DNA from: Candidatus Dormiibacterota bacterium
GTDB taxonomy: Bacteria; Chloroflexota; Dormibacteria; Aeolococcales; Aeolococcaceae
Direction of reading: 5' to 3'
Length of the DNA: 64,000 bases
Assembly (NCBI GenBank): GCA_963709585.1
Contig: CAVPXI010000004.1
Coordinates: 170,547-234,546 of the forward strand
In this document: one piece after another, positions 33,999-45,709 of the stretch
How the letters are laid out: every line of letters starts with the position of its first letter
How positions within the stretch are numbered: the stretch's first letter is position 1
The notes under the pieces: generated by a model
Told to the model about the DNA's origin: nothing
Seen by the model: the letters and a program-made list of their open reading frames with translations, nothing else
Database searches by the model: none
Program-made: the position numbers and the translations under genes

Positions 33999-36040
33999 CG
34001 CACGGTTCCGTCGCGGAGCACCGCCAGCACGGATTCCCCGTAGCGGTCGAGCTTCGCCGGACCCACCCCCGGGATGCCGGCCAGGGCCCCGGCGGACGTC
34101 GGACGGCGCTCGGCCATCTCGGCGAGGGTCCGGTCGTGAAAGACCACGTAGGGCGGGACCTCCGCCTGCCGCGCAATCTCGAGCCTCCAGGTCCGCAACG
34201 CTTCGAAGCGCGCCGCGACCTCCGGCGTCATCGCGAGCGCGGGTGCGCCCCCGGTCGCGCGAGTGCGCCGGCCGCTAGCACGCTTGGGTTGCGACGCACG
34301 CACGTCGACATCAAGGGCTTCCTCGCCGCGTAGCACCGACGTCCCCCGAGGCGTGATCCTCAGCGTCGGCTTCTCGCCGTGGCCGCGGCTGATACAGCCC
34401 AGCTCGACGAGTCGTTCGAGCAGCTCGCGGATTGCCTCCAGGTCCCAACCGCGGAGTGCGCCGAACCATCGGAGCTCGGCGACCCAGGGACGCGACGCCG
34501 TCCACGCGTCGACGGAGCCGCGCAGGATCGAGGCGATTCGAACACCACCGAGGTGGTCATCGAACCGCGCCACGCTGGCGAGCGCCGCATTCACATCGGC
34601 GGGGTCGACGGCCGCGTACGGCGCGCGGTTGCTGTCGAGACAGTTGTCGCACGCCATGCACCTCCGAGCGACGCCCTGCTCGCCGAAATAGTCGGCGATG
34701 CGCGCATGCCGGCAGGTGCGTGAGCCCGCGTACTCCATGACCTGGTTCACCCGCGCGTAAGCGTTGGCCTTGAGCAGCGCCTGCTCTTCGAAGTCGACGG
34801 GCGCTCCGGTCAGGCGTCGAATCCCGCCGTCCGGCTGGATCACCTCGGCGCGGCGCAACAGGTCGAGCGCGGCTCGTGCTCCGTTGATCGGGATGCCCCG
34901 CGCCTGCCAGTCGTCGATCGCGTCGCTCCCCTCACGGAGCAATTCGCGGTACACGGCGCGGACCGCGTCGCGCTCGGGGTAGGCGTGCTCGATGAAGAAC
35001 TCCTGCAGCTGGCGGTCGGCGGGGCTGTAGAGCAGGATGCACTCGGATGGTTCGCCATCACGGCCGGCGCGACCGGCCTGCTGGTAGTACTCCTCGAGGC
35101 TTCCGGGGAAGTCGTGATGGATCACCCGGCGGATGTCCGGGAAGTCGACGCCCATGCCGAACGCCGAGGTGGCGACGATCGCCTGCAGACGGCCCGCGGC
35201 GAAGCCCTCGTGCACGAGCTGTCGCGCGTCCCCGTCGACGGCGCCGTGATACGAGGCGACCGCGACCCCGGCACCGGCGAGCAGCTCGGTGATCTCGTCG
35301 GTGGATCGCCTGCTCCCGCAGTACACGAGCGCGCGGCCCCTGCCCGGTTGCACGAGGCCCAACAGGGCGTCGCGCTTGTCGGCCGCGCCGCGGCAGCGGA
35401 TGACCGACATGGTCAGGTTGTCGCGGACGAACCCGGTGATCCGCTCGACGGCTGCTCGCAGGCCGAGACTTGCCGCGATGTCCTCGCGGACCCGCGGGGT
35501 CGCCGTCGCCGTGAAGGCGCCGACCGGCGGGCGGCCGCACGCCGCGATGGCGTCGCCAAGGCGTCGGTAATCGGGGCGGAAGTCGTGGCCCCAGCTCGAG
35601 ATGCAGTGCGCCTCGTCGACGACGAAGCGATCGACGGACAACCTGCCGAGGTTGTCGAGGAAGCCGGGGGCGCCGAGACGCTCCGGGGCGAGGTACAGGA
35701 ATCGAAGCTCGCCGTCCGCCGCGGCTCGCAGTGACTCGGCCCGGTTTGCCGCGCTGACCTGACTGTGCACGCAGGCGGCGGGAACACCGAGCGCGTTGAG
35801 GCGCGCGACCTGGTCGACCATCAGTGCGATCAGCGGCGACACCACGAGGGTGAGACCGCCGCCGGCGATTCCCGGGACCCAGTAGGCGATGCTCTTCCCG
35901 GAGCCGGTCGGCGCCACGAAGAGCACGTCCGCGCGCGCCTCCGATGCGGCGACGACGTCGGCCTGCCCGGGTCGGAACTCCGCGAATCCGAAGGTCTGCT
36001 CGAGGACCGCGCGAGCCCGAGGCGAGGGCTCGAGCGGCAT
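33995..36040 (-). CDS. recQ: ATP-dependent DNA helicase RecQ
   Basis: Helicase motifs ([17 protein letters not shown], zinc-binding CRHA..CDNC), RQC domain and a C-terminal HRDC domain. Start taken at MPLEPSP. Confidence 0.85.
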
Positions 36041-36442
36041 CAGCTCGCCGACTTCTCCAGCTTGAGCGCGCAGGAGTTCATGCAGTAGCGCTGGCCGGTG
36101 GGCGCCGGGCCGTCGGGGAAGACATGTCCGAGGTGCCCGCCGCACTTGGCGCAGCGGATCTCGGTGCGCGGGATGAGCATGCTCCAGTCCCGATGCTCCT
36201 CGACCGCCGTCTCATTCAGCGGGGCAAAGAAGCTCGGCCAGCCGGTCCCCGAGTTCGAACTTGGTGTCGGAGCCGAACAGCTCGGCGCCGCAGCCCGCGC
36301 ACGTGTACACGCCCTTGTCATCCACGTGCACGTACTGCCCCGTGAATGGGCGCTCGGTGCTCGCCTTGCGGAGCACGGAGTACTGCTCAGGCGTCAGGCG
36401 CTGACGCCACTCGTCGTCGGTGAGGGTGATCTTCTCGTCCAT
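36040..36442 (-). CDS. msrB: peptide-methionine (R)-S-oxide reductase, frameshifted
   Basis: N-terminal half (CAGCGAELF) is in the 36442 frame. The catalytic half (GWPSFF...[17 protein letters not shown]) is in the 36321 frame. They join at a CCCC run at 36247-36250. Confidence 0.8.
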
Positions 36443-36447
36443 GATGC

Positions 36448-37446
36448 TCAGGTTTTACCCCGTTTCGCGGGACTCGACGCATACAGTGCCGCGGCCGCGG
36501 CATGAGTCTCCGCCATGTGCCGACGCAGCGACGCCGGTTCGAGCACCTCGACGTTGGCGCCCCACCGCAGCAACCATGGGCGCATCTCAACCTCGCCGGC
36601 AACGTCGAGCCGCACCTCGATCCCGCCGCCGGGCAGGTCTGTCCGTCTGGCACGGGCGGGCCATGGGGTCTCATCGACCCACTGACGCGCCTCGGGTGAG
36701 AAACGCAGCACCACCCGGTCGGCGCCGGCGCCCTGCCAGATGGCCCACGAGGCACCGAGCACTATGTCGATGTCGAAGTCGGCCGGGACCGAGAACGTTG
36801 TCGGCAGCAGGCGCGCCGACCGGATACGGTCGAGCCGGAACGAGCGAACCTCGCGGGACACGGAGTCGCGCGCGAAGACGTAGATGTGCCGCCCCTCTGC
36901 GGTCGGCTGGATGAAAAACGGACGAAGATCGCGACGGGTCTCATTGCCCTTGGCGTCGACGTAGCGAACCTCGATCTCGCGGTGGCTGACGAAGCCGTCG
37001 ATCACGGTGCGTTCGACCTTGAGCCGCTCGGTGTCAGCCGGCTGGCGCTCGGCGGCGATAAGGGTCCGGCGCAGGTATTCGCTCACGACCGGCACGCTCA
37101 ACGCGCGCGAGAGGTGGGCGAGCGCGCCGACCAGCGCGGGATCCTGCTCGGTGCGCACCTGCTGGAGCAGGCGCACGGCCACAAGGAGCAACGTGGCCTG
37201 GTAGTGGTCGAGCTGCAACGGGGGCAGCAGGCTGCCCTTGCCGATCCGCCAGCGACCTCCGGTCTCCTCGACGTCGATGCCGGCGCTGTCGCGAAGGGTG
37301 GCGACGTAGCGTTGCACCGTGCGCGGGTTGACCTCGAGCTCGTCGGCGAGTTGATTGGTGGTCAGCCCGACCTCGGTTTCACAGAGGCGTGCGAACAGCT
37401 TGATGACGCGGAGTTGCTTTTCTCCCTTTTCGTACACGCGTGGCAC
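36448..37446 (-). CDS. WYL domain-containing HTH transcriptional regulator (PafBC/BrxR/CapW-like architecture)
   Basis: N-terminal wHTH ([26 protein letters not shown]), central WYL domain (RDLRPFFIQ...HIYVFARD...RSFRLDRI) and a C-terminal WCX-like region. Confidence 0.8.
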
Positions 37447-37455
37447 ATGACGAGC

Positions 37456-37985
37456 CTAGCGATTTGCCGGGGCCGCGGACTCGATGTCGAGTGTGTAGCT
37501 GAGCAGCACCATCCCGTCCGGTCGTGCCTGCGGGCTGGTGGGCGCGAAACCAAGGCTTGCATACAGCTGCTGCGCCGCCGTCATGACCGGGTCGGTGTCC
37601 AACGTCATGACCTGCTTGCCGTGGGCCCTCGCCGCATCGATGCACGCCAACATGAGGCGGCGAGCAATCCCCCGTCCACGATGGTCCGGGCTCACCCCGA
37701 GCATACGGACATGCGCCTCGTCTGGCGCCAGGGGGTCGGCCACCCCGGGGCTGATTCGCGAGTTCGAGCTCCAGGGTTACCGATCCCGCGATGACGCCAT
37801 TTTCCACCGCCACCAACACGATGGCCCGGCCGGCCCGGCTTCCCACGTCGGCGATTCTCGCCAGGTACGCCTCCCAGCCGGGCGAGTCAGGCGTCAGAAA
37901 CTCGCGGAAGGCGCGCACGGTCGAACTCGCCTGCGGCCTCGTACTCGAACTCGCGGATCGGGCGGATCTCGATCTCGTCAGGCAC
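37456..37985 (-). CDS. GNAT family N-acetyltransferase, two frameshifts
   Basis: Three ORF pieces assemble into a canonical roughly 176-aa GNAT: MPDEIEIRPIREFEYEAAGEF / VRAFREFLTPDSPGWEAYLARIAD...VTLELELANQ / PLAPDEAHVRMLGVSPDHRGRGIARRLM.... The joins fall at GG 37919-37920 and at the CCCC/GGGG runs 37743-37750. Immediately upstream of, and in an operon with, the WYL regulator. Confidence 0.65.
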
Positions 37986-38039
37986 TGAGAAAACCCTACG
38001 CGACAGACATCTGTCGCCGGAGCCGCTCATGGTTGCGGC

Positions 38040-38291
38040 ATGGATACGGACACAGCGGCGCCGATCGACACCGCGGCCGCCGGCGACGGGCCCTACCTTC
38101 GGCGCGCCCAGGAGTTGGTGGCCGCGAGAGGGGATCTCTTCCTGGCCGGGCCGGGACGCTCGGTGCGGCTCGCCGCTGTCAGCGGCCCGCCGCGGGACCG
38201 GGCGGCCTCGAAGCTCCGGCAGGCGAGCCGGCAGCTCACGCTGCCCATGCCGCGCCAACCCACGCGCCGGCGGCCCAGGATGGTGCGCTGA
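38040..38291 (+). CDS. small basic hypothetical protein (83 aa), stop-start overlap with downstream gene
   Basis: ORF ends in a TGATG overlap with the nuclease-helicase start codon. Composition is borderline, with an Arg-rich C-terminus. Low confidence. Confidence 0.25.
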   Translation: MDTDTAAPIDTAAAGDGPYLRRAQELVAARGDLFLAGPGRSVRLAAVSGPPRDRAASKLRQASRQLTLPMPRQPTRRRPRMVR

Positions 38292-41200
38292 TGCGATACC
38301 TCGAGGACGGCTGTCCCGTGTACACGGCCACGGACCTCTGCGACTACCTCGCGTGCGGGCACCTGGTCGCGCTCAAGCGGCGCATCGCTGCCGGCGAGCC
38401 GATCAAGCATGACCGGACCGCGCTCAGCGAGGTGCTCGCGAATCTGGGTGCGGAGCACGAGCAGCGCTATCTCGACGCGCTTCGGGCACGGGGCTTGACC
38501 GTCAAGGCGTTCGAGGACGACCGCGACCGCTACGCGAGTACCGCCGGCGAACTCCGCGCTCTTGAGGCCGAGACCGTCGAGGCGATGGCTCAGGGTTTCG
38601 AGGTCATCTATCAGCCCACCTTCTTCGACGGGCGCTGGATGGGTCGCGCCGACTTCCTGCTTCGAGTTCGAGACGCCGAGCGCCCGGTGGCCGTGGGCGT
38701 ACGAGGCGGCTGACGCGAAGCTCGCCCGCCGCGTGCGTTCTGAGGCGATCCTCCAGCTCTGTGAGTACTCGGCGCACCTGGAGCGGCTCCAGGGGACGCC
38801 GCCCGCGCTGATGCAGCTGATTCTCGGTGACGGCGTCGAGCATGCATATCGGATCGATGAGTTCTCCGCGTACCACGCAGCCGTGAAGCGGGACTTCGAG
38901 GTGGCGATGCTCGCCGAGCTCGGCAGCACGTACCCCGACCCGGTCGAGCACTGCAACACGTGTGGATTCGCCGCGCGCTGTGCAGCTCAGCGAAAACAGG
39001 ACGATCATCTTTCCCAGGTCGCGCGCATGCGGTCGGGTCAGGTGCTCGCGCTGAAATCCGTCGGCATCGCCACCATGACCGCGCTCGCTCAGGTTTCCGC
39101 CGACGTCGAGCCTCCGGCACGTATGAGCCCGACCTCCTTCGGCGACCTGCGCGCCCAGGCGGCGTTGCAGCACACGGGTCCTCACGCTGACGGGGCGCCG
39201 CGACACGAGTTGCTCGATGCATGGGAGGTCGGACATGGTCTGTGTGCGCTTCCGAGTCCGTCACCAGGCGATCTCTTCTTCGACATGGAGGGCGACGGCC
39301 TCGCACGCGACGTGCCGCTGGAGTACCTCTTCGGTGCGGTCGACATGCACGGCGTGTATCGAGCGTGGTGGGGCCACGACGACGCCGGCGAGCGACGTGC
39401 GTTCGAGGGGTTCGTCGACCACGCCATCGCGCAACTCGAACGTTATCCGGACATGCACATTTACCACTACGCCGCGTACGAGAAGACCGCACTCCGCCGG
39501 CTGATGAGCCGCCACGGCACCCGCGAGGAGGAGGTCGACCGCCTGCTCCGCAACGAGGTGCTCGTCGACCTCTATCGCGTGGTGCGACAGGGAGTGCGGC
39601 TGTCCACCAACTCGTACTCGCTGAAGAAGGTCGAGCGGCTGTACATGCCGGCACGCGAGGAGTCGATCGCGGACGCAGCGGGAAGCATGGTGATGTACGA
39701 GCGCTGGCTGAACAGCAGCCGCGATGGGGGCGATGGGGACGCCGCGCTCCTCGACGAGATCGCGATCTACAACGAGCGCGACTGCATCTCGACCGCGCAA
39801 TTGCGCGACTGGCTCGAGGCGCGTCGCATCGAGGAGGAGAGGCTTCGCGGCGCGCCCATCGAGCGTCCGGCGGTCGTCGAGCGCGACGTCAGTGAGGCCC
39901 TCGGCGCAAAGATCGTCGCGACCCAGGAGGTCGCGGCCGCACTGGTCGACAATGCCCCCCCGGACCCGGACCTGCAGACGGACGCCGAACGAGCGAGGTG
40001 GTTGCTGGCGCCGCTTCTGTCGTATCACCGGCGCGAGAACAAGGTCAATTGGTGGCGTCACTACGACCAGCTGGCGATGAGCCCGGAGGAGCTCGAGCGC
40101 GACACGTACGCGCTCGGTCCGCTCGAGATGATCGGCGCGCATGAGGAGGGCCGTCGCACCATCGAGCGGTACCGGTTCGAACCCCAGGAACACCGCGTCG
40201 GCCTCGGCGACATTCCGCTCGATCCTGAAACCGACGCGCGCTGGGCACCCGTCGCCGGGGAGGTGACCGAGCTCGAACTCGGCACGAGGAACAATCACAC
40301 TGTCGCGCACTCCCGGTCAGGCAGAGCGCGGAGCCGTCCGCTTTCTGATCCAGACGACACCGTTCGCGACCGATGCGCAGGAGGCGGCGCTCCTCGACCT
40401 CGGCCGCTGGGTCGTCGCCAACGGCCCGGATGCCGGCGGGCCCAATCGCGCCGGACGCGACCTGCTGCTTCGGCTGCCGCCGCGCCTGCGTGACGGCACC
40501 GATTGCGTGCTCCGGGGCGCAGGGGAGACGGCATCCGAGGCTGCGATACGACTGATCCTCGGCCTGCGGCGTGGATGCCTCCCGGTCCAGGGTCCGCCCG
40601 GAGCCGGGAAAACGCACATGGCCGCGCTGGCGGCACTCCGGCTCATTGCGAGGGGGCGCACACCGGTTGGTGTCACCGCCGTCACGCACAACGCGATTCG
40701 CACCCTGCTGGCGAAGATCGAGGAGCTGGCCCCCTCGCTTGGCATGACCGTGCGCATGCAACACCGCAAAGGGGACGGAACCGGTTCCGCCGCGATCCAG
40801 GTTGTCCGCAGCAACGAGATGGTCGAGGCGGCGGTCGTGGACGGCACCGTCGACGTCGTCGGCGGAACCTCGTGGCTCTTCTCTCGCCCGGAGTTCGAGG
40901 CGGGTTTCGACACGCTCATCGTCGACGAGGCCGGCCAGATGTCACTCGCGGACACGCTCGCGGTCTCGCGCGCCGCCCGCAATCTCGTCCTGGTGGGCGA
41001 TCCGCGACAGCTCGCCCAACCGCTCCAGGGGAGCCACCCACCGGGCGTCGGGGTTTCCGCGCTCGACCATCTGCTCGGTGACGACGTCACCATCGCTCCC
41101 GACCGCGGCGTGCTGCTCGACCTCACCTGGCGAATGCATCCCGACGTGAGTGCTTTCGTATCGCGTTCCTTCTACGAGGGACGGCTGGGCTCGGAACCGC

Positions 41201-41757
41201 GATGCGCGAGCCAGGCGGTCGTCATCGACGGTGCCGCGATCACGGGCCTGCGGACGGTGTTTGTGGAGCATCAAGGCGATCGCGTTCGGTCCGATGCGGA
41301 GGCGGGGCGTGTCGGCGACGTCATCGACCAGCTCATCCGATCCGCGTGGCGGGACGACCGAGGCCATATGCGTGCGCTGTCGCTCGACGACATCGTAGTC
41401 GTCGCACCGTACAACGCGCAGGTCGCGTGTCTTCTCGAGTCGCTGCCGCCGGGTGCGAGAGTGGGCACCGTCGATCGCTTCCAGGGGCAGGAAGCCGCGG
41501 TCAGCATCTTCTCGATGGCGACGTCGAGCGTCGAAGACCTGCCGCGCAATCTCGAATTCCTGTTCAGCCTCAACCGCCTCAACGTGGCAGTGTCGCGAGC
41601 GCGCGGGCTCTCGATCCTGGTCTGCTCGCCCGAACTGCTCCGTGCTCGTTGCCGTACGCCGGAGCAGATGCAACTCGTCAATGCGCTATGCCGCTTTGTG
41701 GAGATGGCAGAGCCGTGGATCACCGCGCCGGTGGGCGCGATCATGCTGCCGGTATGA
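38291..41757 (+). CDS. TM0106-family RecB/Cas4-like nuclease - DnaQ-like exonuclease - SF1 helicase fusion protein (~1150 aa), two frameshifts
   Basis: Segment 1 (38291..38713 frame): PD-(D/E)xK motif GRADFLLRV. Segment 2 (38562..40320 frame): YEAADAK, Cys cluster CNTCGFAARC and RNase H-like exonuclease (FFDMEGD, HIYHYAAYE, LVDLY). Segment 3 (40267..41757 frame): SF1 helicase (Walker A GPPGAGKTH, DEAGQ, LVGDPRQL, FQGQE, NVAVSRAR). The joins fall at CCC runs 38683-38685 and 40312-40314. Confidence 0.75.
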
Positions 41758-42467
41758 CCGCCGATTCGCTCAAAACCCGCCTGCTGCAAACGCTCGATGC
41801 GGCCTCCACTCGAGAGGCCGCGCTGCTTGCGCTGTGTGACGATTCCCCGCCGTCCGAGGCCGGTCGCTGGACCGCGAAGGACAACGTCGCGCACCTCAGC
41901 AGCTGGCGTGAGCATGCGACCCGTACCCTCGATGCGGTGCGCCTCGGGAAACCAGTCGAAGGACCAGCCAATGAGAGCGACCTTGACGGGCGCAACGCGG
42001 AGATCTACGAGGCTCATCGCGATAACTCGGCGGCCACGGTCCGTGCTGCCGCAAGCGACAGTTACGCGGCGCTGATCGAGGCGGTGAAGGCGTGCACCGA
42101 CGAGGATCTGATTCGTGACCGCCCCGGTGACGGTGGCCCGGTGTGGCGTGTCATCCCCGGCAACGGTCATGGTCACGTCGCCCAGCACCTCTCGTACTGG
42201 GCTGCCGAGCACGACGATCAAGCAGGCGCGGAGGACGCCGCGAGATGGGCATATTCGCTTGACACCGATCTCTTCCCCGACAACCAGGCAATCGCCGACT
42301 ACAACTACGGCTGTTTCTACGCGCGGAACGGACGTGCTGACGAGGCGCTGCCGCTGCTGGGAGCCGCCCTCCGGTCGCGTCCTGAACTGCGCAGCTTCGC
42401 GCTCGACGATGCGGACATCGAGCCCATCCGCGACGATCCCCGCGTGCAGAGCCTCCTCGGCCCCTGA
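41754..42467 (+). CDS. ClbS/DfsB (DUF1706)-like four-helix-bundle protein with C-terminal TPR-like region
   Basis: ATGA overlap with the helicase stop. N-terminal domain (WTAKDNVAHLSSWREHA...EIYEAH) resembles the ClbS/DinB-like family. C-terminal region (YNYGCFYARNGRADEALPLLGAAL) is TPR-like. Confidence 0.45.
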   Translation: MTADSLKTRLLQTLDAASTREAALLALCDDSPPSEAGRWTAKDNVAHLSSWREHATRTLDAVRLGKPVEGPANESDLDGRNAEIYEAHRDNSAATVRAAASDSYAALIEAVKACTDEDLIRDRPGDGGPVWRVIPGNGHGHVAQHLSYWAAEHDDQAGAEDAARWAYSLDTDLFPDNQAIADYNYGCFYARNGRADEALPLLGAALRSRPELRSFALDDADIEPIRDDPRVQSLLGP

Positions 42468-42567
42468 TCGCCCCTCATGGACGGCTTTCTTCGCGCCTGA
42501 GTGGCTGACCCGAGAGGCTCTTGGTCAAACTTCGCAGGCCCTTTTCATGCCTGATTCTTTCTGCTAA

Positions 42568-42585
42568 TATCTATTCAAGTAGATA
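42568..42585. promoter_or_regulatory. inverted repeat TATCTA-N6-TAGATA in AT-rich leader, candidate GntR operator
   Basis: A perfect 6-bp inverted repeat inside the only AT-rich stretch (42540-42600) for kilobases, about 30 nt upstream of the gntR start. Confidence 0.4.
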
Positions 42586-42612
42586 AATACCCTTAGCGGG
42601 AACCACCGGACC

Positions 42613-43005
42613 ATGATCCACTTCCGTCTGAACGCCCAATCGGGCGTGGCCACCTATGTGCAGCTGGTTCATCAGGTGCGCCATGCCCTGCGGTCTGGAC
42701 TGCTCGAGCCTGGGGATCAACTCCCCACAGTGAAAGAGGTCGTTGGATCGCTCGCCATCAACCCCAACACGGTGTTGAAGGCGTACCGCGAACTGGAACA
42801 CGCCGGCCTGGTTGAAGGGCGCCCGGGAATGGGGACCTTCGTCCTGCGCTCGTTGGAGGGTCCGCCTCCCGACAAGCAGGCTGCTCTTCGAAAATCATTG
42901 CAGCGGTGGCTGCAATCGGCATTCGAAGCGGGCCTGAGTCCCGATGCCGTCCTTGCCTTTGTCGATGCAGCCATACGCGATGTCACAGAGGACAGCGTGG
43001 CATGA
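42613..43005 (+). CDS. GntR family transcriptional regulator (YtrA-like short subfamily)
   Basis: wHTH motif (LPTVKEVVGSLAINPNTVLKAYRELEHAGLVEGRPGMGTFV) with a short C-terminal helical domain. Translationally coupled to the downstream ABC ATPase. Confidence 0.8.
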   Translation: MIHFRLNAQSGVATYVQLVHQVRHALRSGLLEPGDQLPTVKEVVGSLAINPNTVLKAYRELEHAGLVEGRPGMGTFVLRSLEGPPPDKQAALRKSLQRWLQSAFEAGLSPDAVLAFVDAAIRDVTEDSVA

Positions 43006-43907
43006 CCGCCATCGTCGCGACCGGGCTCGGAATGCGGTACGGCAAACGTGTGGCGCTCCGCGACTGTTCGATGGAGATTCCTTCGGGAAGTGTCACTGCA
43101 CTTGTCGGCCCCAATGGGGCGGGAAAGACCACGTTGCTCCTACTCGCTGCCGGATTGCTCGCTCCAACCGCTGGAACGATCACTGTTCTTGACCGGACTC
43201 CCGATCGGGACGTGGAACTGATCTCACGAATTGGCTTCGTTGCGCAGGACGTTCCACTCTACGGGTCCTTCACCGTCGCCGAAATGCTTCGCTTCGGTCA
43301 AAAGATGAACCACCACTGGGACCAGCAACTGGCCCAGCAGCGGATGGAGAAGCTGCAAATCCCCCTGAATCAGCAGGTCCATGAACTGTCGGGCGGGCAG
43401 CGAGCGCAGGTATCGCTGGCTCTCGCCTTGGGGAAGAAGCCCGACATCCTGCTGCTTGATGAGCCCCTCGCCAGTCTTGACCCGCTGGCCCGGCGGGAGT
43501 TCATGCGCGTGGTGATGGAGACCGCCGCCGACTCGAAGATCACGATCGTCCTGTCATCCCACCTGGTCGCCGACCTCGAGCGTGTATGTGACCACCTTGT
43601 GGTCCTGTCCTCGTCGCGCACTCAGGTCGTGGGGGAGATCGGTACCCTGTTGGACGGTCACCGCGTTCTTGTGGGGCCTCATTGCGACTCCCGCGAGCCC
43701 GACATTGCGGGTGTCGCGTCCATCGTTGAGAGGACGGACTCAGAGCGCCAGACCAGCCTCCTGGTCCGCACCAATGGACCGATTCTTGATCCAAAATGGA
43801 TATCCGAACCAGTCACGTTGGAAGATCTCGTGCTTGCCTACCTGGCACGTCCGGGTGCGACCGCGCTTCCGGCCCCGCGAGCGATGACAGAGGCGTCCGC
43901 GTCGTGA
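43002..43907 (+). CDS. ABC transporter ATP-binding protein
   Basis: Walker A GPNGAGKTT, signature LSGGQRAQVSLA and Walker B ILLLDEP. Confidence 0.85.
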   Translation: MTAIVATGLGMRYGKRVALRDCSMEIPSGSVTALVGPNGAGKTTLLLLAAGLLAPTAGTITVLDRTPDRDVELISRIGFVAQDVPLYGSFTVAEMLRFGQKMNHHWDQQLAQQRMEKLQIPLNQQVHELSGGQRAQVSLALALGKKPDILLLDEPLASLDPLARREFMRVVMETAADSKITIVLSSHLVADLERVCDHLVVLSSSRTQVVGEIGTLLDGHRVLVGPHCDSREPDIAGVASIVERTDSERQTSLLVRTNGPILDPKWISEPVTLEDLVLAYLARPGATALPAPRAMTEASAS

Positions 43908-44905
43908 TGTGGTTGACGTGGCGCCAACATCGCGCACAGTTCATCGCGGGTGTGGTTCTCGGCGGTGTGCTGGTTGCCTTTCTGGTGGTCACGGGCTTGG
44001 GAATGCGCTCCACCTATGACTCCCTGGGTGTTGCCACGTGCCTGGCCGCTACGCCGGCGCGAGACTGCACCATGCTGTTCAGTCAATTCCAAAACCAATA
44101 CTCGTCGTTGCAGTTCCTGATCCCGCTCTTCCTCCTGCTGCCCGTACTGCTCGGAGTCTTCTGGGGCGCGCCGTTGATTGCGCGTGAAGTCGAGCAGGGG
44201 ACCTACCGGCTGGCCTGGACACAGTCGGTGACCCGCCGCCGCTGGACCGTCACCAAACTCTTCATTGTCGGTTCAGTCGCTGTGATTCTTTCGGCCATAT
44301 TCTCGGCGGTATTGTGGTGGTGGGCAGACCCGCTGGTGGGGGACCCATCCGTCCAGCGCTTCAAATACGGCATCTTTGACTTACTCGGGGTTGTACCGGT
44401 TGCCTACACACTGTTCGCGGTTGCACTTGGTGTCGCTGCTGGAGTGGTGCTGCGGCGTACGACCGTCGCCATGGTGGCAACGCTCTGCGGGTTTGCCGTT
44501 GCGCGGCTGTTTGTGGAATTGGTGCTGCGCCCAAATTACCAACGCGCGGTCACGGCCGCTTACCCTCTCAGCTTCAGCTCCAAGACCGGTCCACCCGATG
44601 GCGCGTGGGTTCTCGCCGAGAACACCGTTACGGCGTCAGGGTTCGCCGTGAGTGGTGACTCCAACGGAGTCAGCCTCAGCTATGTCCCGATGCAGCACAT
44701 CTGTCCCTATCTCACTCCTGTTTCGGCACCTGGTTCCGCGGCGATGCAGCAATGCCTCACCCAGAACGGAATTCACGTCGTCGCCACGTTTCAGCCGTAC
44801 GACCGCTACTGGTTGTTCCAGGGGATCGAGTCCGCGCTGTTCATCGTCCTCGCGATCGCGCTGGCCCTGTTCTCCATTTGGTGGGTGCGCAGACGGGTCC
44901 GATAG
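43907..44905 (+). CDS. ABC-2 family transporter permease
   Basis: Multi-TM protein in the gntR-ABC operon (ytrA-type module). Confidence 0.6.
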   Translation: MWLTWRQHRAQFIAGVVLGGVLVAFLVVTGLGMRSTYDSLGVATCLAATPARDCTMLFSQFQNQYSSLQFLIPLFLLLPVLLGVFWGAPLIAREVEQGTYRLAWTQSVTRRRWTVTKLFIVGSVAVILSAIFSAVLWWWADPLVGDPSVQRFKYGIFDLLGVVPVAYTLFAVALGVAAGVVLRRTTVAMVATLCGFAVARLFVELVLRPNYQRAVTAAYPLSFSSKTGPPDGAWVLAENTVTASGFAVSGDSNGVSLSYVPMQHICPYLTPVSAPGSAAMQQCLTQNGIHVVATFQPYDRYWLFQGIESALFIVLAIALALFSIWWVRRRVR

Positions 44906-44911
44906 CCCGTT

Positions 44912-45709
44912 TCACGCCTGCGGCGGTGTCACCCGGAGGCGGTCGATGAACAAGCCCTGCAGCGAACGGCCGATCGGCCCCCGCTCATCGTAGAGCCTGC
45001 TGTGCGCGACGCCGACACCGTGCCGATCGACATCGGTGCTCGCGTCAAGGCAGATCCATTCGCCCTCGGGCTGACGGTGCACATACACGGTCAGATCGGT
45101 GTTGATGAACATGAACTGTTGCCACGACAGCGCCGACGAGACGCCGTTGCCGAAATCGGCCGCGGCAAGCGTGCGCTGCAGCGGCGTCGGCGTCTGACCC
45201 GCGATCAGCGGGATCGCGAGCCGCATCCACACGGTCGCGGGCCCCGGCTCCATGAACGACCCACGCGCGTAACGCATCTCGACACCGGTGCGGTGAAACG
45301 CGGGATCGTCACTCTCGGCGACATGTGCGGTCAACTCGGCCGGCCCCGGGAACGGCACCTCGAGCGGCGGCTGCTCGCCGAGGTCGAGGTCCGCGATGCG
45401 CATGCGCCACGCCGTCGCTCGGCAGAGTTCGGTGTTGCCGTCGGTGAGTGTCGCGGTCACCAGCTGGACGCGGCGGCCTTCGCGCTCCACGCGGGCGGAG
45501 ACCTCAACGGGTCGGAGCGGCACCGGCCGGAAGATCTCAACGGTGATCCGTACGACCGCCATGGGCGCCTCGGTCCGAAGCGCCTCCATGGCTGCGGCCA
45601 TGAGCGCTGCCGGCGGGCCGCCGTGCATGGCGCCGCGATCCCAAGGCCCCCGCGCATGCTCGCTGGGCACGTAGCCGCGTTTGTGGGGAGTGAACAGCGC
45701 GTCGGGCAT
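44912..45709 (-). CDS. acyl-CoA thioesterase (double hotdog, TesB-like) family protein
   Basis: Hotdog-fold motifs (HGGPPAAL...). Internal start at MPDALFTP. Confidence 0.55.
   Translation of the reverse strand: MPDALFTPHKRGYVPSEHARGPWDRGAMHGGPPAALMAAAMEALRTEAPMAVVRITVEIFRPVPLRPVEVSARVEREGRRVQLVTATLTDGNTELCRATAWRMRIADLDLGEQPPLEVPFPGPAELTAHVAESDDPAFHRTGVEMRYARGSFMEPGPATVWMRLAIPLIAGQTPTPLQRTLAAADFGNGVSSALSWQQFMFINTDLTVYVHRQPEGEWICLDASTDVDRHGVGVAHSRLYDERGPIGRSLQGLFIDRLRVTPPQA

Follow-up and report, generated by a model that had tools for sequence, protein, structure and literature searches.

A probable DNA-damage unit in a Candidatus Dormibacterota genome: a Dna2-like TIGR03491 nuclease-helicase predicted to be under the control of a WYL regulator

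We analyzed a 64,000-nucleotide stretch of DNA (hereafter "the window") from a Candidatus Dormiibacterota bacterium (GenBank assembly GCA_963709585.1, contig CAVPXI010000004.1, positions 170,547 to 234,546), in which a large nuclease-helicase of the TIGR03491 (TM0106) family is encoded divergently from a GNAT acetyltransferase and a WYL-domain transcription factor. We consider it probable that this cluster is a DNA-damage or replication-stress unit under a homodimeric WYL activator of the DriD/SiwR type, which would sense single-stranded DNA (ssDNA). Several lines of evidence lead to this reading, among them the likeness of the regulator to DriD, the footprint of operator and promoter, the way in which the operator tracks the regulator, the linkage of regulator and nuclease-helicase in related genomes, the presence of RecQ and MsrB as partners, and PafBC-type motifs in front of distant members of the family. 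The computed results concern which genes are present and co-occur, how well motifs are conserved, and how operator and promoter are arranged; from these we infer binding, activation, enzymology, and clamp tethering. The window has a GC content of ~68%, and its genes find their best homologues in metagenome-assembled genomes of Candidatus Dormibacterota. To our knowledge, this phylum has no cultured representative, and the WYL activators PafBC, DriD, and SiwR, which we believe to be the best-understood non-SOS damage sensors, have so far been studied in Actinobacteria and Alphaproteobacteria only.

The cluster had been singled out by a model that read the letters of the window without database searches (hereafter, the original prediction). 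Its call of a WYL-domain winged helix-turn-helix regulator on the minus strand is borne out by Pfam, which finds HTH_11 (31.9 bits), WYL (40.4 bits), and WCX (67.1 bits), all over their cut-offs. The regulator is a single 332-aa gene, presumed to act as a homodimer, with no second WYL gene and no pafA within ~8 kb. Sequence searches match it to DriD (8tp8, over the full length, residues 7-314), PafC (7p5x), and PafBC (6sj9), with E values of ~1e-7 to 1e-5. The residues R42/Q45/R46 align with R37/E40/R41 of DriD, which read CGxC...GxCG half-sites; PafB uses R46 and R50 for GTC readout. Likewise, Y162, R172, Y189, R201, F203, R204, and W237 align with the ssDNA-contacting residues Y168, R178, Y192, R204, W206, R207, and Y240 of DriD. 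Seven of the eight DriD ssDNA contacts compared are kept or conservatively replaced, the eighth (K202) aligning to E199. The R42/Q45/R46 triad and the seven pocket residues are invariant in six regulator orthologues of 60-97% identity, and the idea of a ligand-gated WYL unit, already part of the original prediction, holds.

The control region is far more compact than had been supposed. Instead of an intergenic region of ~300 bp, only 54 bp separate the GNAT start (37985) from the next start (38040), which belongs to a conserved 83-aa gene. The original prediction had proposed looking here for a palindromic operator or a PafBC-type motif, and a palindrome is indeed present, in PafBC-type geometry. 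The layout GCGACAG-N4-CTGTCGC-N10-CAnnnT-N6/7-start codon recurs in ~20 related loci (16 formally aligned and several compared by inspection; WYL orthologues of 60-97% identity). In every locus compared the arms read GCGACAG and TGTCG, around a 4-bp spacer that differs between loci, and the right arm is followed by exactly 10 variable bases, an invariant C-A-N3-T, 6-7 further bases, and the start of the small gene. The PafBC consensus is tGTCgg(N10)tA(N3)T, with the GTC element at -23 to -28, and the spacing from operator to hexamer is the same here, TGTCGC(N10)CA(N3)T. DriD's site, ATACGACAG-TTA-CTGTCGTAT, has the same half-site, CGACAG; in our case the two halves are one base further apart. 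No sigma-70-type -35/-10 pair was found in the control region; the rightward promoter has no -35 element, and its proximal half-site lies at about -23 to -29 (a "-26 element"). This absence matches DriD- and PafBC-dependent promoters; at DriD promoters the -35 elements are weak and the distance between site and -10 is constant. On the other side, the leftward -10 hexamer TAGGGT lies between the palindrome (1 nt away) and the GTG start of the GNAT gene (7 nt downstream), and related loci keep a TAnnnT hexamer in the same place. Read in this way, both divergent transcripts would be leaderless.

The operator travels with the regulator. Across 169 loci, exact operator matches occur in 16, all of which encode a WYL orthologue of at least 51% identity, and the exact operator is absent from all distant TM0106 loci and from those loci whose WYL protein is at most 38% identical. 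Within the 64-kb window it is found once; we saw no other copy with good arms, and relaxed half-site matches in the window are without either the palindrome or a downstream gene, one or the other.

Linkage between the two divergent halves is equally regular. The arrangement of GNAT-WYL divergent from the small gene and the TM0106 gene is kept in six related loci (L001, L002, L083, L084, L085, L088), over TM0106 identities of 51-95%. A metagenome scan with the regulator recovered 22 orthologues of at least 57% identity, followed by a gap down to at most 38%; wherever a WYL orthologue of at least 63% identity had enough upstream flank, it adjoined GNAT and TM0106 (12/12). A recQ gene occupies the same position as in the window in L001, L002, L083, and nine metagenome loci. 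The unit runs on into msrB and recQ beyond the bounds first proposed (36448-42467), although the genes named within those bounds are real. Because the RecQ linkage is limited to the window's own sub-clade and the gene for the protein that follows the nuclease-helicase (DinB-TPR, described below) is missing in L084 and L088 with the rest of the unit kept, we take the core unit to be GNAT-WYL plus the small gene and TM0106. The flanks are shared as well: in L001, L002, L083, L084, and L085 (TM0106 identity 52-95%), msrA and an ABC transporter lie upstream and thioesterase, hydrolase, and lactamase_B genes downstream. In this lineage the locus is a stable chromosomal position and not a variable island; of the two things that the original prediction wished to see in comparative genomics, conserved gene order is found within the clade and residence in variable islands is not.

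A sister branch of WYL proteins (L101-L105 and L107; 58-62% identity; e.g., L104:4034-8723) has the order MarR / membrane protein / WYL / M20 peptidase / MsrB, with no GNAT or TM0106 gene and an operator-like palindrome ~2 kb upstream. The MsrB linkage is older than the TM0106 linkage.

The main cargo of the rightward operon is the large protein, 1154 aa long once the reading frame is corrected (see below), whose proposed Cas4-like nuclease, DEDD exonuclease, and SF1 helicase domains all hold. TIGR03491 scores 252.2 bits against a cut-off of 97.45 over residues 12-508 of the 95%-identical orthologue P0001, and Pfam adds RNase_H_2 (E 2e-26) and the SF1 helicase domains AAA_11, AAA_12, and AAA_30. 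RecB/Cas4-type nuclease residues (D121, E138, D141, K143, Q155, Y159) are accompanied by a 1+3 Fe-S cysteine pattern (C22...C221-x2-C224-x5-C230), DEDDy exonuclease residues follow (D331, E333, D426, Y493, D497), and the helicase carries Walker A (GPPGxGKT, 767-774) and Walker B (D878/E879) motifs. The nuclease, Fe-S, exonuclease, and Walker residues are invariant in 15 homologues with 47-82% identity to the reference and are present in the corrected window protein. The C-terminal SF1B helicase is nearest to Upf1, Dna2, IGHMBP2, and Sen1 (Dna2 5eax, E 8e-13). In design the large protein resembles Dna2 and Bad, in which a nuclease precedes a 5'-3' motor, and has a proofreading-type exonuclease in addition. 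Our search of the literature on TM0106/TIGR03491, or on WYL proteins together with a RecB-like nuclease, turned up nothing relevant and no characterized member; a study of mitomycin C in M. tuberculosis names rv2119 and rv2024c, not the TIGR03491 family.

The two proteins encoded with it are more restricted. The small protein is present in 20/20 loci, where its length changes in-frame only and its stop overlaps the next start. Its conserved features are a helix (Y..RA..L.A....LF) and, C-terminally, the motif QL[TSRKA]LP[LIM]. As an orphan, it has no more than 14 representatives in a set of 1.84 billion proteins. The C-terminal motif is likewise found in 20/20 loci, ending in L (14 loci), I (5), or, in the window, M (QLTLPM), compared with a control rate of 1/74 in the regions upstream of distant homologues. 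Clamp-binding motifs follow the consensus Q-phi-x-[L/M]-x-[F/L], which QLxLP[L/I/M] appears to fit, and the small protein may, as a hypothesis only, bind the clamp. The downstream protein, confined to one Dormibacterota clade, had been described as ClbS/DUF1706-like with a TPR tail. Its ClbS-like four-helix-bundle fold, its Pfam DUF1706 match over cut-off, and its C-terminal TPR (NCBIfam TPR_END_plus, 49 bits against a cut-off of 32) agree with that description. However, H47, H139, H141, and H145 are invariant in 28 homologues, and the triad H47/H141/H145 is typical of DinB metalloenzymes, whereas ClbS and DfsB are without the DinB metal-binding histidine motif (PMC10693628); the ClbS label therefore applies at the level of fold and Pfam family only. 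For the GNAT protein, searches of NCBIfam and of PDB sequences showed no more than a generic likeness to GNAT enzymes.

These elements suggest a mechanism. The regulator would bind the 18-bp palindrome in the 54-bp control region, and loading of its WYL/WCX pocket with ssDNA would lead it to recruit RNA polymerase to the rightward promoter. The bound dimer would cover about -14 to -32 of the leaderless leftward promoter and would probably limit expression of its own operon, GNAT-WYL-MsrB-RecQ. From the induced, leaderless rightward transcript, the small protein, the nuclease-helicase, and the DinB-TPR protein would be made. The QLxLP[L/I/M] motif of the small protein may tether the complex to the beta sliding clamp, while the substrates of the Dna2/Bad-like enzyme would be ssDNA ends, flaps, or stalled forks, perhaps processed in concert with the co-located RecQ. 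The DinB/ClbS-fold protein with its TPR tail, a putative metalloprotein, might serve in detoxification or DNA binding.

Table 1. Features of the cluster, with positions counted from the first letter of the window
Feature	Position	Strand	Basis or remark
recQ, RecQ helicase, 681 aa	33995..36040	-	NCBIfam recQ_fam 356 bits vs cut-off 219.8; last gene of the regulator operon
msrB (SelR), methionine sulfoxide reductase B	36038..36442	-	Pfam SelR in orthologues; 133 aa once corrected
HTH-WYL-WCX transcription factor, 332 aa	36448..37446	-	Pfam HTH_11, WYL, WCX
GNAT acetyltransferase, 175 aa (corrected)	37456..37985	-	Pfam Acetyltransf_1/7/9/10 in orthologues; corrected translation matches L001
-10 hexamer TAGGGT of the GNAT-WYL operon	37993..37998	-	Read from the sequence
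Operator palindrome GCGACAGA-CA-TCTGTCGC	38000..38017	.	7-bp arms, 4-bp spacer; perfect palindrome
-10-like hexamer CATGGT (CAnnnT)	38028..38033	+	10 nt after TGTCGC, 6 nt before ATG
Small orphan protein, 83 aa	38040..38291	+	Called as a gene in relatives; GC3 supports the frame
TIGR03491 (TM0106-family) protein, 1154 aa (corrected)	38291..41757	+	Cas4/RecB-like Fe-S nuclease, DEDDy exonuclease, SF1B helicase
DinB/YfiT-superfamily four-helix bundle (DUF1706/DinB_2) with C-terminal TPR end domain, 237 aa	41754..42467	+	

The gene list of the original prediction, with GNAT and the WYL regulator on the minus strand and the nuclease-helicase and ClbS-like protein on the plus strand, is correct (Table 1). 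The leftward operon begins with the GNAT gene and runs in the order GNAT-WYL-MsrB-RecQ; msrB follows the WYL gene after a 5-nt gap, and the ATG of recQ overlaps the msrB stop by 1 nt, as TGATG. On the rightward side, the stop of the small gene overlaps the TM0106 start, also as TGATG, and the predicted ATGA overlap between the large gene and the DinB/DUF1706 gene is confirmed, with the ATG of the latter overlapping the TM0106 stop. Between the DinB-TPR gene and the conserved thioesterase gene lies a 2.4-kb stretch of lower GC content (62%; 42468-44919) that is absent from L001, and relatives have other small genes in its place. Its translations, judged by eye, point to a GntR/YtrA-like HTH protein at 42613-43005, an ABC ATPase at ~43000-43907, and an ABC-2-type permease at 43796-44905. 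No tRNA genes that could serve as integration markers were found within the window.

The wider family places these observations in context. TIGR03491 comprises more than 5,900 clusters, with full-length relatives at no fewer than 594 loci (a count of at least that number) in species-representative genomes of many phyla; its distribution is patchy, it occurs on 60 plasmids, and no full-length homologue was found in phages. In the surroundings of 80 distant TM0106 loci, none of the WYL, GNAT, DinB-TPR, or small-protein genes recurred (phmmer, E up to 1), and clustering of the neighbours of distant homologues revealed no fixed partner. By PADLOC and Pfam, 114 upstream neighbours of distant homologues are mostly ordinary metabolic, transport, or housekeeping genes, with a defence minority. 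A simple in-house gene caller, which over-extends starts and loses small genes, was used solely to pick neighbour ORFs. The PafBC-type motif TGTC[GA]N-N10-[TC]AnnnT lies within 120 nt upstream of the TM0106-family gene in 10/76 distant loci, with 0.4 expected: four in Actinobacteria (L042, L045, L060, L020), five in Chloroflexota (L004, L005, L018, L019, L029), and one in Dormibacterota (L008). The matches include Klenkia (TGTCGGTG-N8-TAGCGT), Jiangella, Haloactinopolyspora, and one Acidimicrobiales genome, and the sites in the five Chloroflexota genomes are mostly palindromic. A further dormibacterotal locus (L089), found apart from this count, also has the motif. The motif-bearing distant genes have no adjacent WYL gene. 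Given the excess of 10/76 over the 0.4 expected, WYL-type damage regulons appear to target the TIGR03491 family repeatedly, with or without an adjacent regulator gene. The original prediction had conceded that its view of the cluster would suffer if orthologues were universal at a conserved core-genome position, lacked the WYL, GNAT, and ClbS-like partners, and were induced only within the general LexA/PafBC regulon. This is partly the case: outside the clade the partners are lacking and several homologues have PafBC-type promoters, so the nuclease-helicase looks like an ordinary WYL-regulon member and not a special new system.

A Rhizobium johnstonii plasmid (pRlX2, NZ_CP140847.1 440661-444057; L087) carries a TM0106-family gene that the annotation divides into two CDS (split or frameshifted), with an imuA-imuB-dnaE2 plus dinB cassette on one side and a SIR2 / ATP-binding pair on the other.

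The motif distribution bears directly on a first alternative, in which the WYL protein is the lineage's global damage master regulator, a counterpart of DriD or PafBC, with the nuclease-helicase operon as one of many targets and adjacency reflecting autoregulation. The same kind of promoter precedes TM0106-family genes without an adjacent WYL gene in L008, L089, Chloroflexota, and Actinobacteria; the sister WYL branch keeps the operator in a different gene context; and DriD and PafBC each control many promoters. However, a global regulator sits awkwardly with a single operator in 64 kb and with the strict linkage of regulator and TM0106 in the clade, which is what is seen for the local regulator SiwR. 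We regard this alternative as somewhat unlikely.

A second alternative is defence. The WYL protein would then be a BrxR/CapW-type repressor that releases the nuclease-helicase against invading DNA upon infection or DNA damage. WYL regulators do gate BREX and CBASS (PMC10693628), and the helicase domain partly matches the Mokosh MkoA and DpdJ models. In keeping with the original prediction, which recognized no named defence system, PADLOC (PADLOC-DB v2) run on all components returned none: its matches on the large protein (MkoA, MkoC, DpdJ) cover the helicase segment only and fit no system model, the WYL protein matches generic WYL and Cas3c-fusion models, and the GNAT, small, and DinB-like proteins have no match. 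Among homologues of 47-50% identity, L090 has McrBC, Dcm, and Vsr genes as neighbours, along with a WYL gene of 51% identity and four operator-like sites; L089 is set in an island rich in toxin-antitoxin genes. Shango, Zorya-like, restriction, or DRT genes are next to some of the distant loci, and the family is patchy and plasmid-borne in part. Set against this are the syntenic housekeeping flanks over TM0106 relatives of 52-95% identity, the RecQ and MsrB partners, the promoter without a -35 and with activator-type -26 geometry, the mostly ordinary metabolic and transport neighbours of distant homologues, and the search of phages, in which no full-length homologue was found. The original prediction had left the choice between DNA repair and defence open; the flanks, the RecQ/MsrB partners, and a promoter layout of the PafBC/DriD/SiwR kind favour the former, and for this locus we find the defence reading poorly supported and improbable, though other members of the family may have a role in defence.

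Two of the defence-associated settings deserve description in their own right. In L090 (9801-13555, 11889-12872), the 51%-identical WYL gene lies 2.4 kb from the 50%-identical TM0106 gene, near Dcm, Vsr, and McrBC, and the four operator-like GCGACAG-N4-xTGTCGx sites are scattered among small uncharacterized genes; the locus may represent the same regulon in a mobile or defence-island form. In the Erythrobacter loci L055 and L059 (6499-9974), a TM0106 homologue lies directly 3' of genes matching Shango SngB/SngC, together with BrxC/D-type ATPase and DEAD helicase families, and L054 has a TerB-like gene nearby.

A third alternative, resistance to a genotoxic natural product, would have GNAT acetylate a DNA-damaging antibiotic, the ClbS/DinB-like enzyme inactivate it, and the nuclease-helicase remove the lesions, all induced by damage. 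The nearest folds to the DinB-like protein are indeed those of the ClbS and DfsB family, GNAT weakly matches antibiotic acetyltransferases, and the DinB_2 operon of SiwR responds to zeocin. However, GNAT belongs to the regulator operon and not to the induced one, the DinB-like gene is absent from L084 and L088 where the rest of the unit is kept, the DinB-like protein keeps the His triad that ClbS lacks, and no biosynthetic cluster is nearby. An island of this kind seems unlikely to us.

The remaining alternative concerns the integrity of the cluster in this genome. The ~1150-aa protein of the original prediction belongs to the TM0106 family and has all three domains, but in the window it spans three reading frames and not one ORF; only after correction is it 1154 aa long. 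Codon-position GC switches cleanly near 38650 and 40280 in the large gene. Relative to L001, which has the large gene and GNAT intact and is 94.9% identical to the window over a 10.5-kb alignment, the window carries five single-base insertions: at 36254 (msrB), 37763 and 37924 (GNAT), and 38667 and 40276 (large gene). Each turns the 8-mer CGAGTCGA into the 9-mer CGAGTTCGA, or does so in reverse complement, the extra base being the bracketed one in CGAG[T]TCGA. Deleting the five extra bases yields the 1154-aa ORF, a 175-aa GNAT, and a 133-aa MsrB, collinear with L001 and with no stop codons or other lesions, and more than 40 intact homologues of the large protein, 1153-1165 aa long, are 73-95% identical. 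The only other length differences from L001 in the 10.5 kb are one compensating pair of 1-base gaps. Truncated calls of the large gene are also seen on contigs of ~1 Mb or longer (P0053, P0059, P0073), which are probably long-read assemblies. A context-dependent consensus or assembly error is probably the most economical reading of the insertions.

Two other explanations of the breaks were considered. Programmed frameshifting is rejected, since the 9-mer lies sometimes on the coding strand and sometimes on its complement, which excludes a translational recoding signal. A uniform, motif-wide sequencing error is not fully satisfactory, as four further copies of CGAGTCGA in the window (16120, 26152, 30390, 63334) are unaltered and the breaks are regionally clustered. 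That the insertions are instead real mutations in a decaying, non-functional cluster would agree with the sequence as given, which breaks msrB once and GNAT and the large gene twice each, and with the four unaltered copies, but it is very improbable, given that all five are +1 changes that hit one 8-mer at one and the same position, whichever strand the gene is on, amid almost no other length differences, with codon-position GC strongly periodic up to and past every shift, corrected genes free of lesions, and truncated calls of the large gene on P0053, P0059, and P0073.

Several observations weigh against a damage unit under a WYL activator. Three genes are frame-broken in the window as given, and if the insertions are real, the unit is decaying. 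The rightward -10 reads CAnnnT and not TAnnnT, the operator spacing is 1 bp off that of DriD, and the window holds one operator only. The position of the operator alone cannot tell an activator from a CapW/BrxR-type repressor. The clamp-binding-like motif of the window's small protein ends in M, outside the strict consensus. To these must be added the company kept by L089 (toxin-antitoxin genes) and L090 (McrBC/Dcm), the defence-gene neighbours of a minority of distant loci, and the 60 plasmids that carry the family.

If the cluster is a DNA-damage unit of the DriD/SiwR kind, as we think probable, the locus suggests that the same promoter grammar and ssDNA-sensing head operate in Dormibacterota. 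It also offers a first functional lead for TIGR03491, as an apparently damage-inducible, Dna2/Bad-like protein with an added proofreading-type exonuclease, which in this clade has two orphan partners, one of them with a clamp-binding-like motif. A bolder extension, which we put forward as speculation, is that the rightward operon encodes a damage-induced, clamp-tethered, Dna2-like end or fork processor, made up of its three proteins and acting with RecQ, a bacterial counterpart of the eukaryotic Dna2-RecQ (Sgs1/BLM) resection pair that is switched on by the ssDNA it itself makes or uses up, and that TIGR03491 is a widespread repair enzyme in WYL-type regulons of at least three phyla.

Among known systems, DriD of Caulobacter crescentus, which as a homodimeric HTH-WYL-WCX protein activates a damage response independent of SOS, shares with our regulator the domain order and a full-length alignment, the Arg/Glu(Gln)/Arg base-reading triad, most of the ssDNA contacts, and the palindrome of CGACAG half-sites. 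Also shared are a site before the regulator's own operon and a fixed distance from operator to -10 in the absence of a good -35. The similarity is only ~1e-7, however, the spacing is CGAC-N8-GTCG here versus N7 in DriD, the spacer is GC-rich here and AT-rich there, the promoters are leaderless here, and DriD acts in a different phylum on didA, recA, recJ, bapE, and dnaG. SiwR of Mycolicibacterium smegmatis is closely parallel in layout: a local, single-gene homodimer that senses ssDNA and is divergent from a DinB_2-family target, across a ~60-bp region with a 19-bp palindrome and a required -26 element. Its triplet is GGA, not GTC, and its operon holds only two DinB-like genes, whereas the main cargo here is the 1154-aa nuclease-helicase with the small orphan, the DinB-like gene being dispensable (absent from L084 and L088). 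PafBC of Actinobacteria, which works by sigma adaptation, has identical promoter spacing, reads GTC by R-x3-R in the recognition helix, and has its motif before actinobacterial TM0106-family genes. PafBC proper, though, is a PafB+PafC heterodimer or fusion, linked to pafA and Pup-proteasome genes and bound to a non-palindromic site; here we find a single gene, a palindrome, and no pafA nearby. BrxR and CapW are likewise HTH-WYL-WCX homodimers that adjoin or diverge from the genes they control and bind a palindromic operator, but at our locus there is no BREX, CBASS, or other PADLOC system, the setting is not a variable island, and the promoter lacks a -35 and has activator-type geometry.

The cargo has its own relatives. 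With ClbS and DfsB, the DinB-TPR protein has in common the DUF1706 match and the fold; it differs in its His triad, its TPR end domain, its restriction to a single clade, and the lack of a colibactin context. Dna2 and Bad likewise combine an N-terminal RecB/Cas4-type nuclease, with a 1+3 cysteine "iron staple," and a C-terminal SF1B helicase. Bad (Geobacillus) also has an extra central domain, reported to be without detectable homology, whereas the central domain here is recognizable as a DEDDy/RNase H-fold exonuclease (Bad being compared by description only). Eukaryotic Dna2 works with RecQ-family helicases, and a parallel may be seen in the recQ gene of the neighbouring operon. The regulatory logic of the locus is of a known kind; what is new is the cargo as a putatively WYL-controlled unit, a Dna2-like TIGR03491 protein with a small protein bearing a clamp-motif-like C-terminus and a DinB/ClbS-fold TPR protein, next to RecQ.

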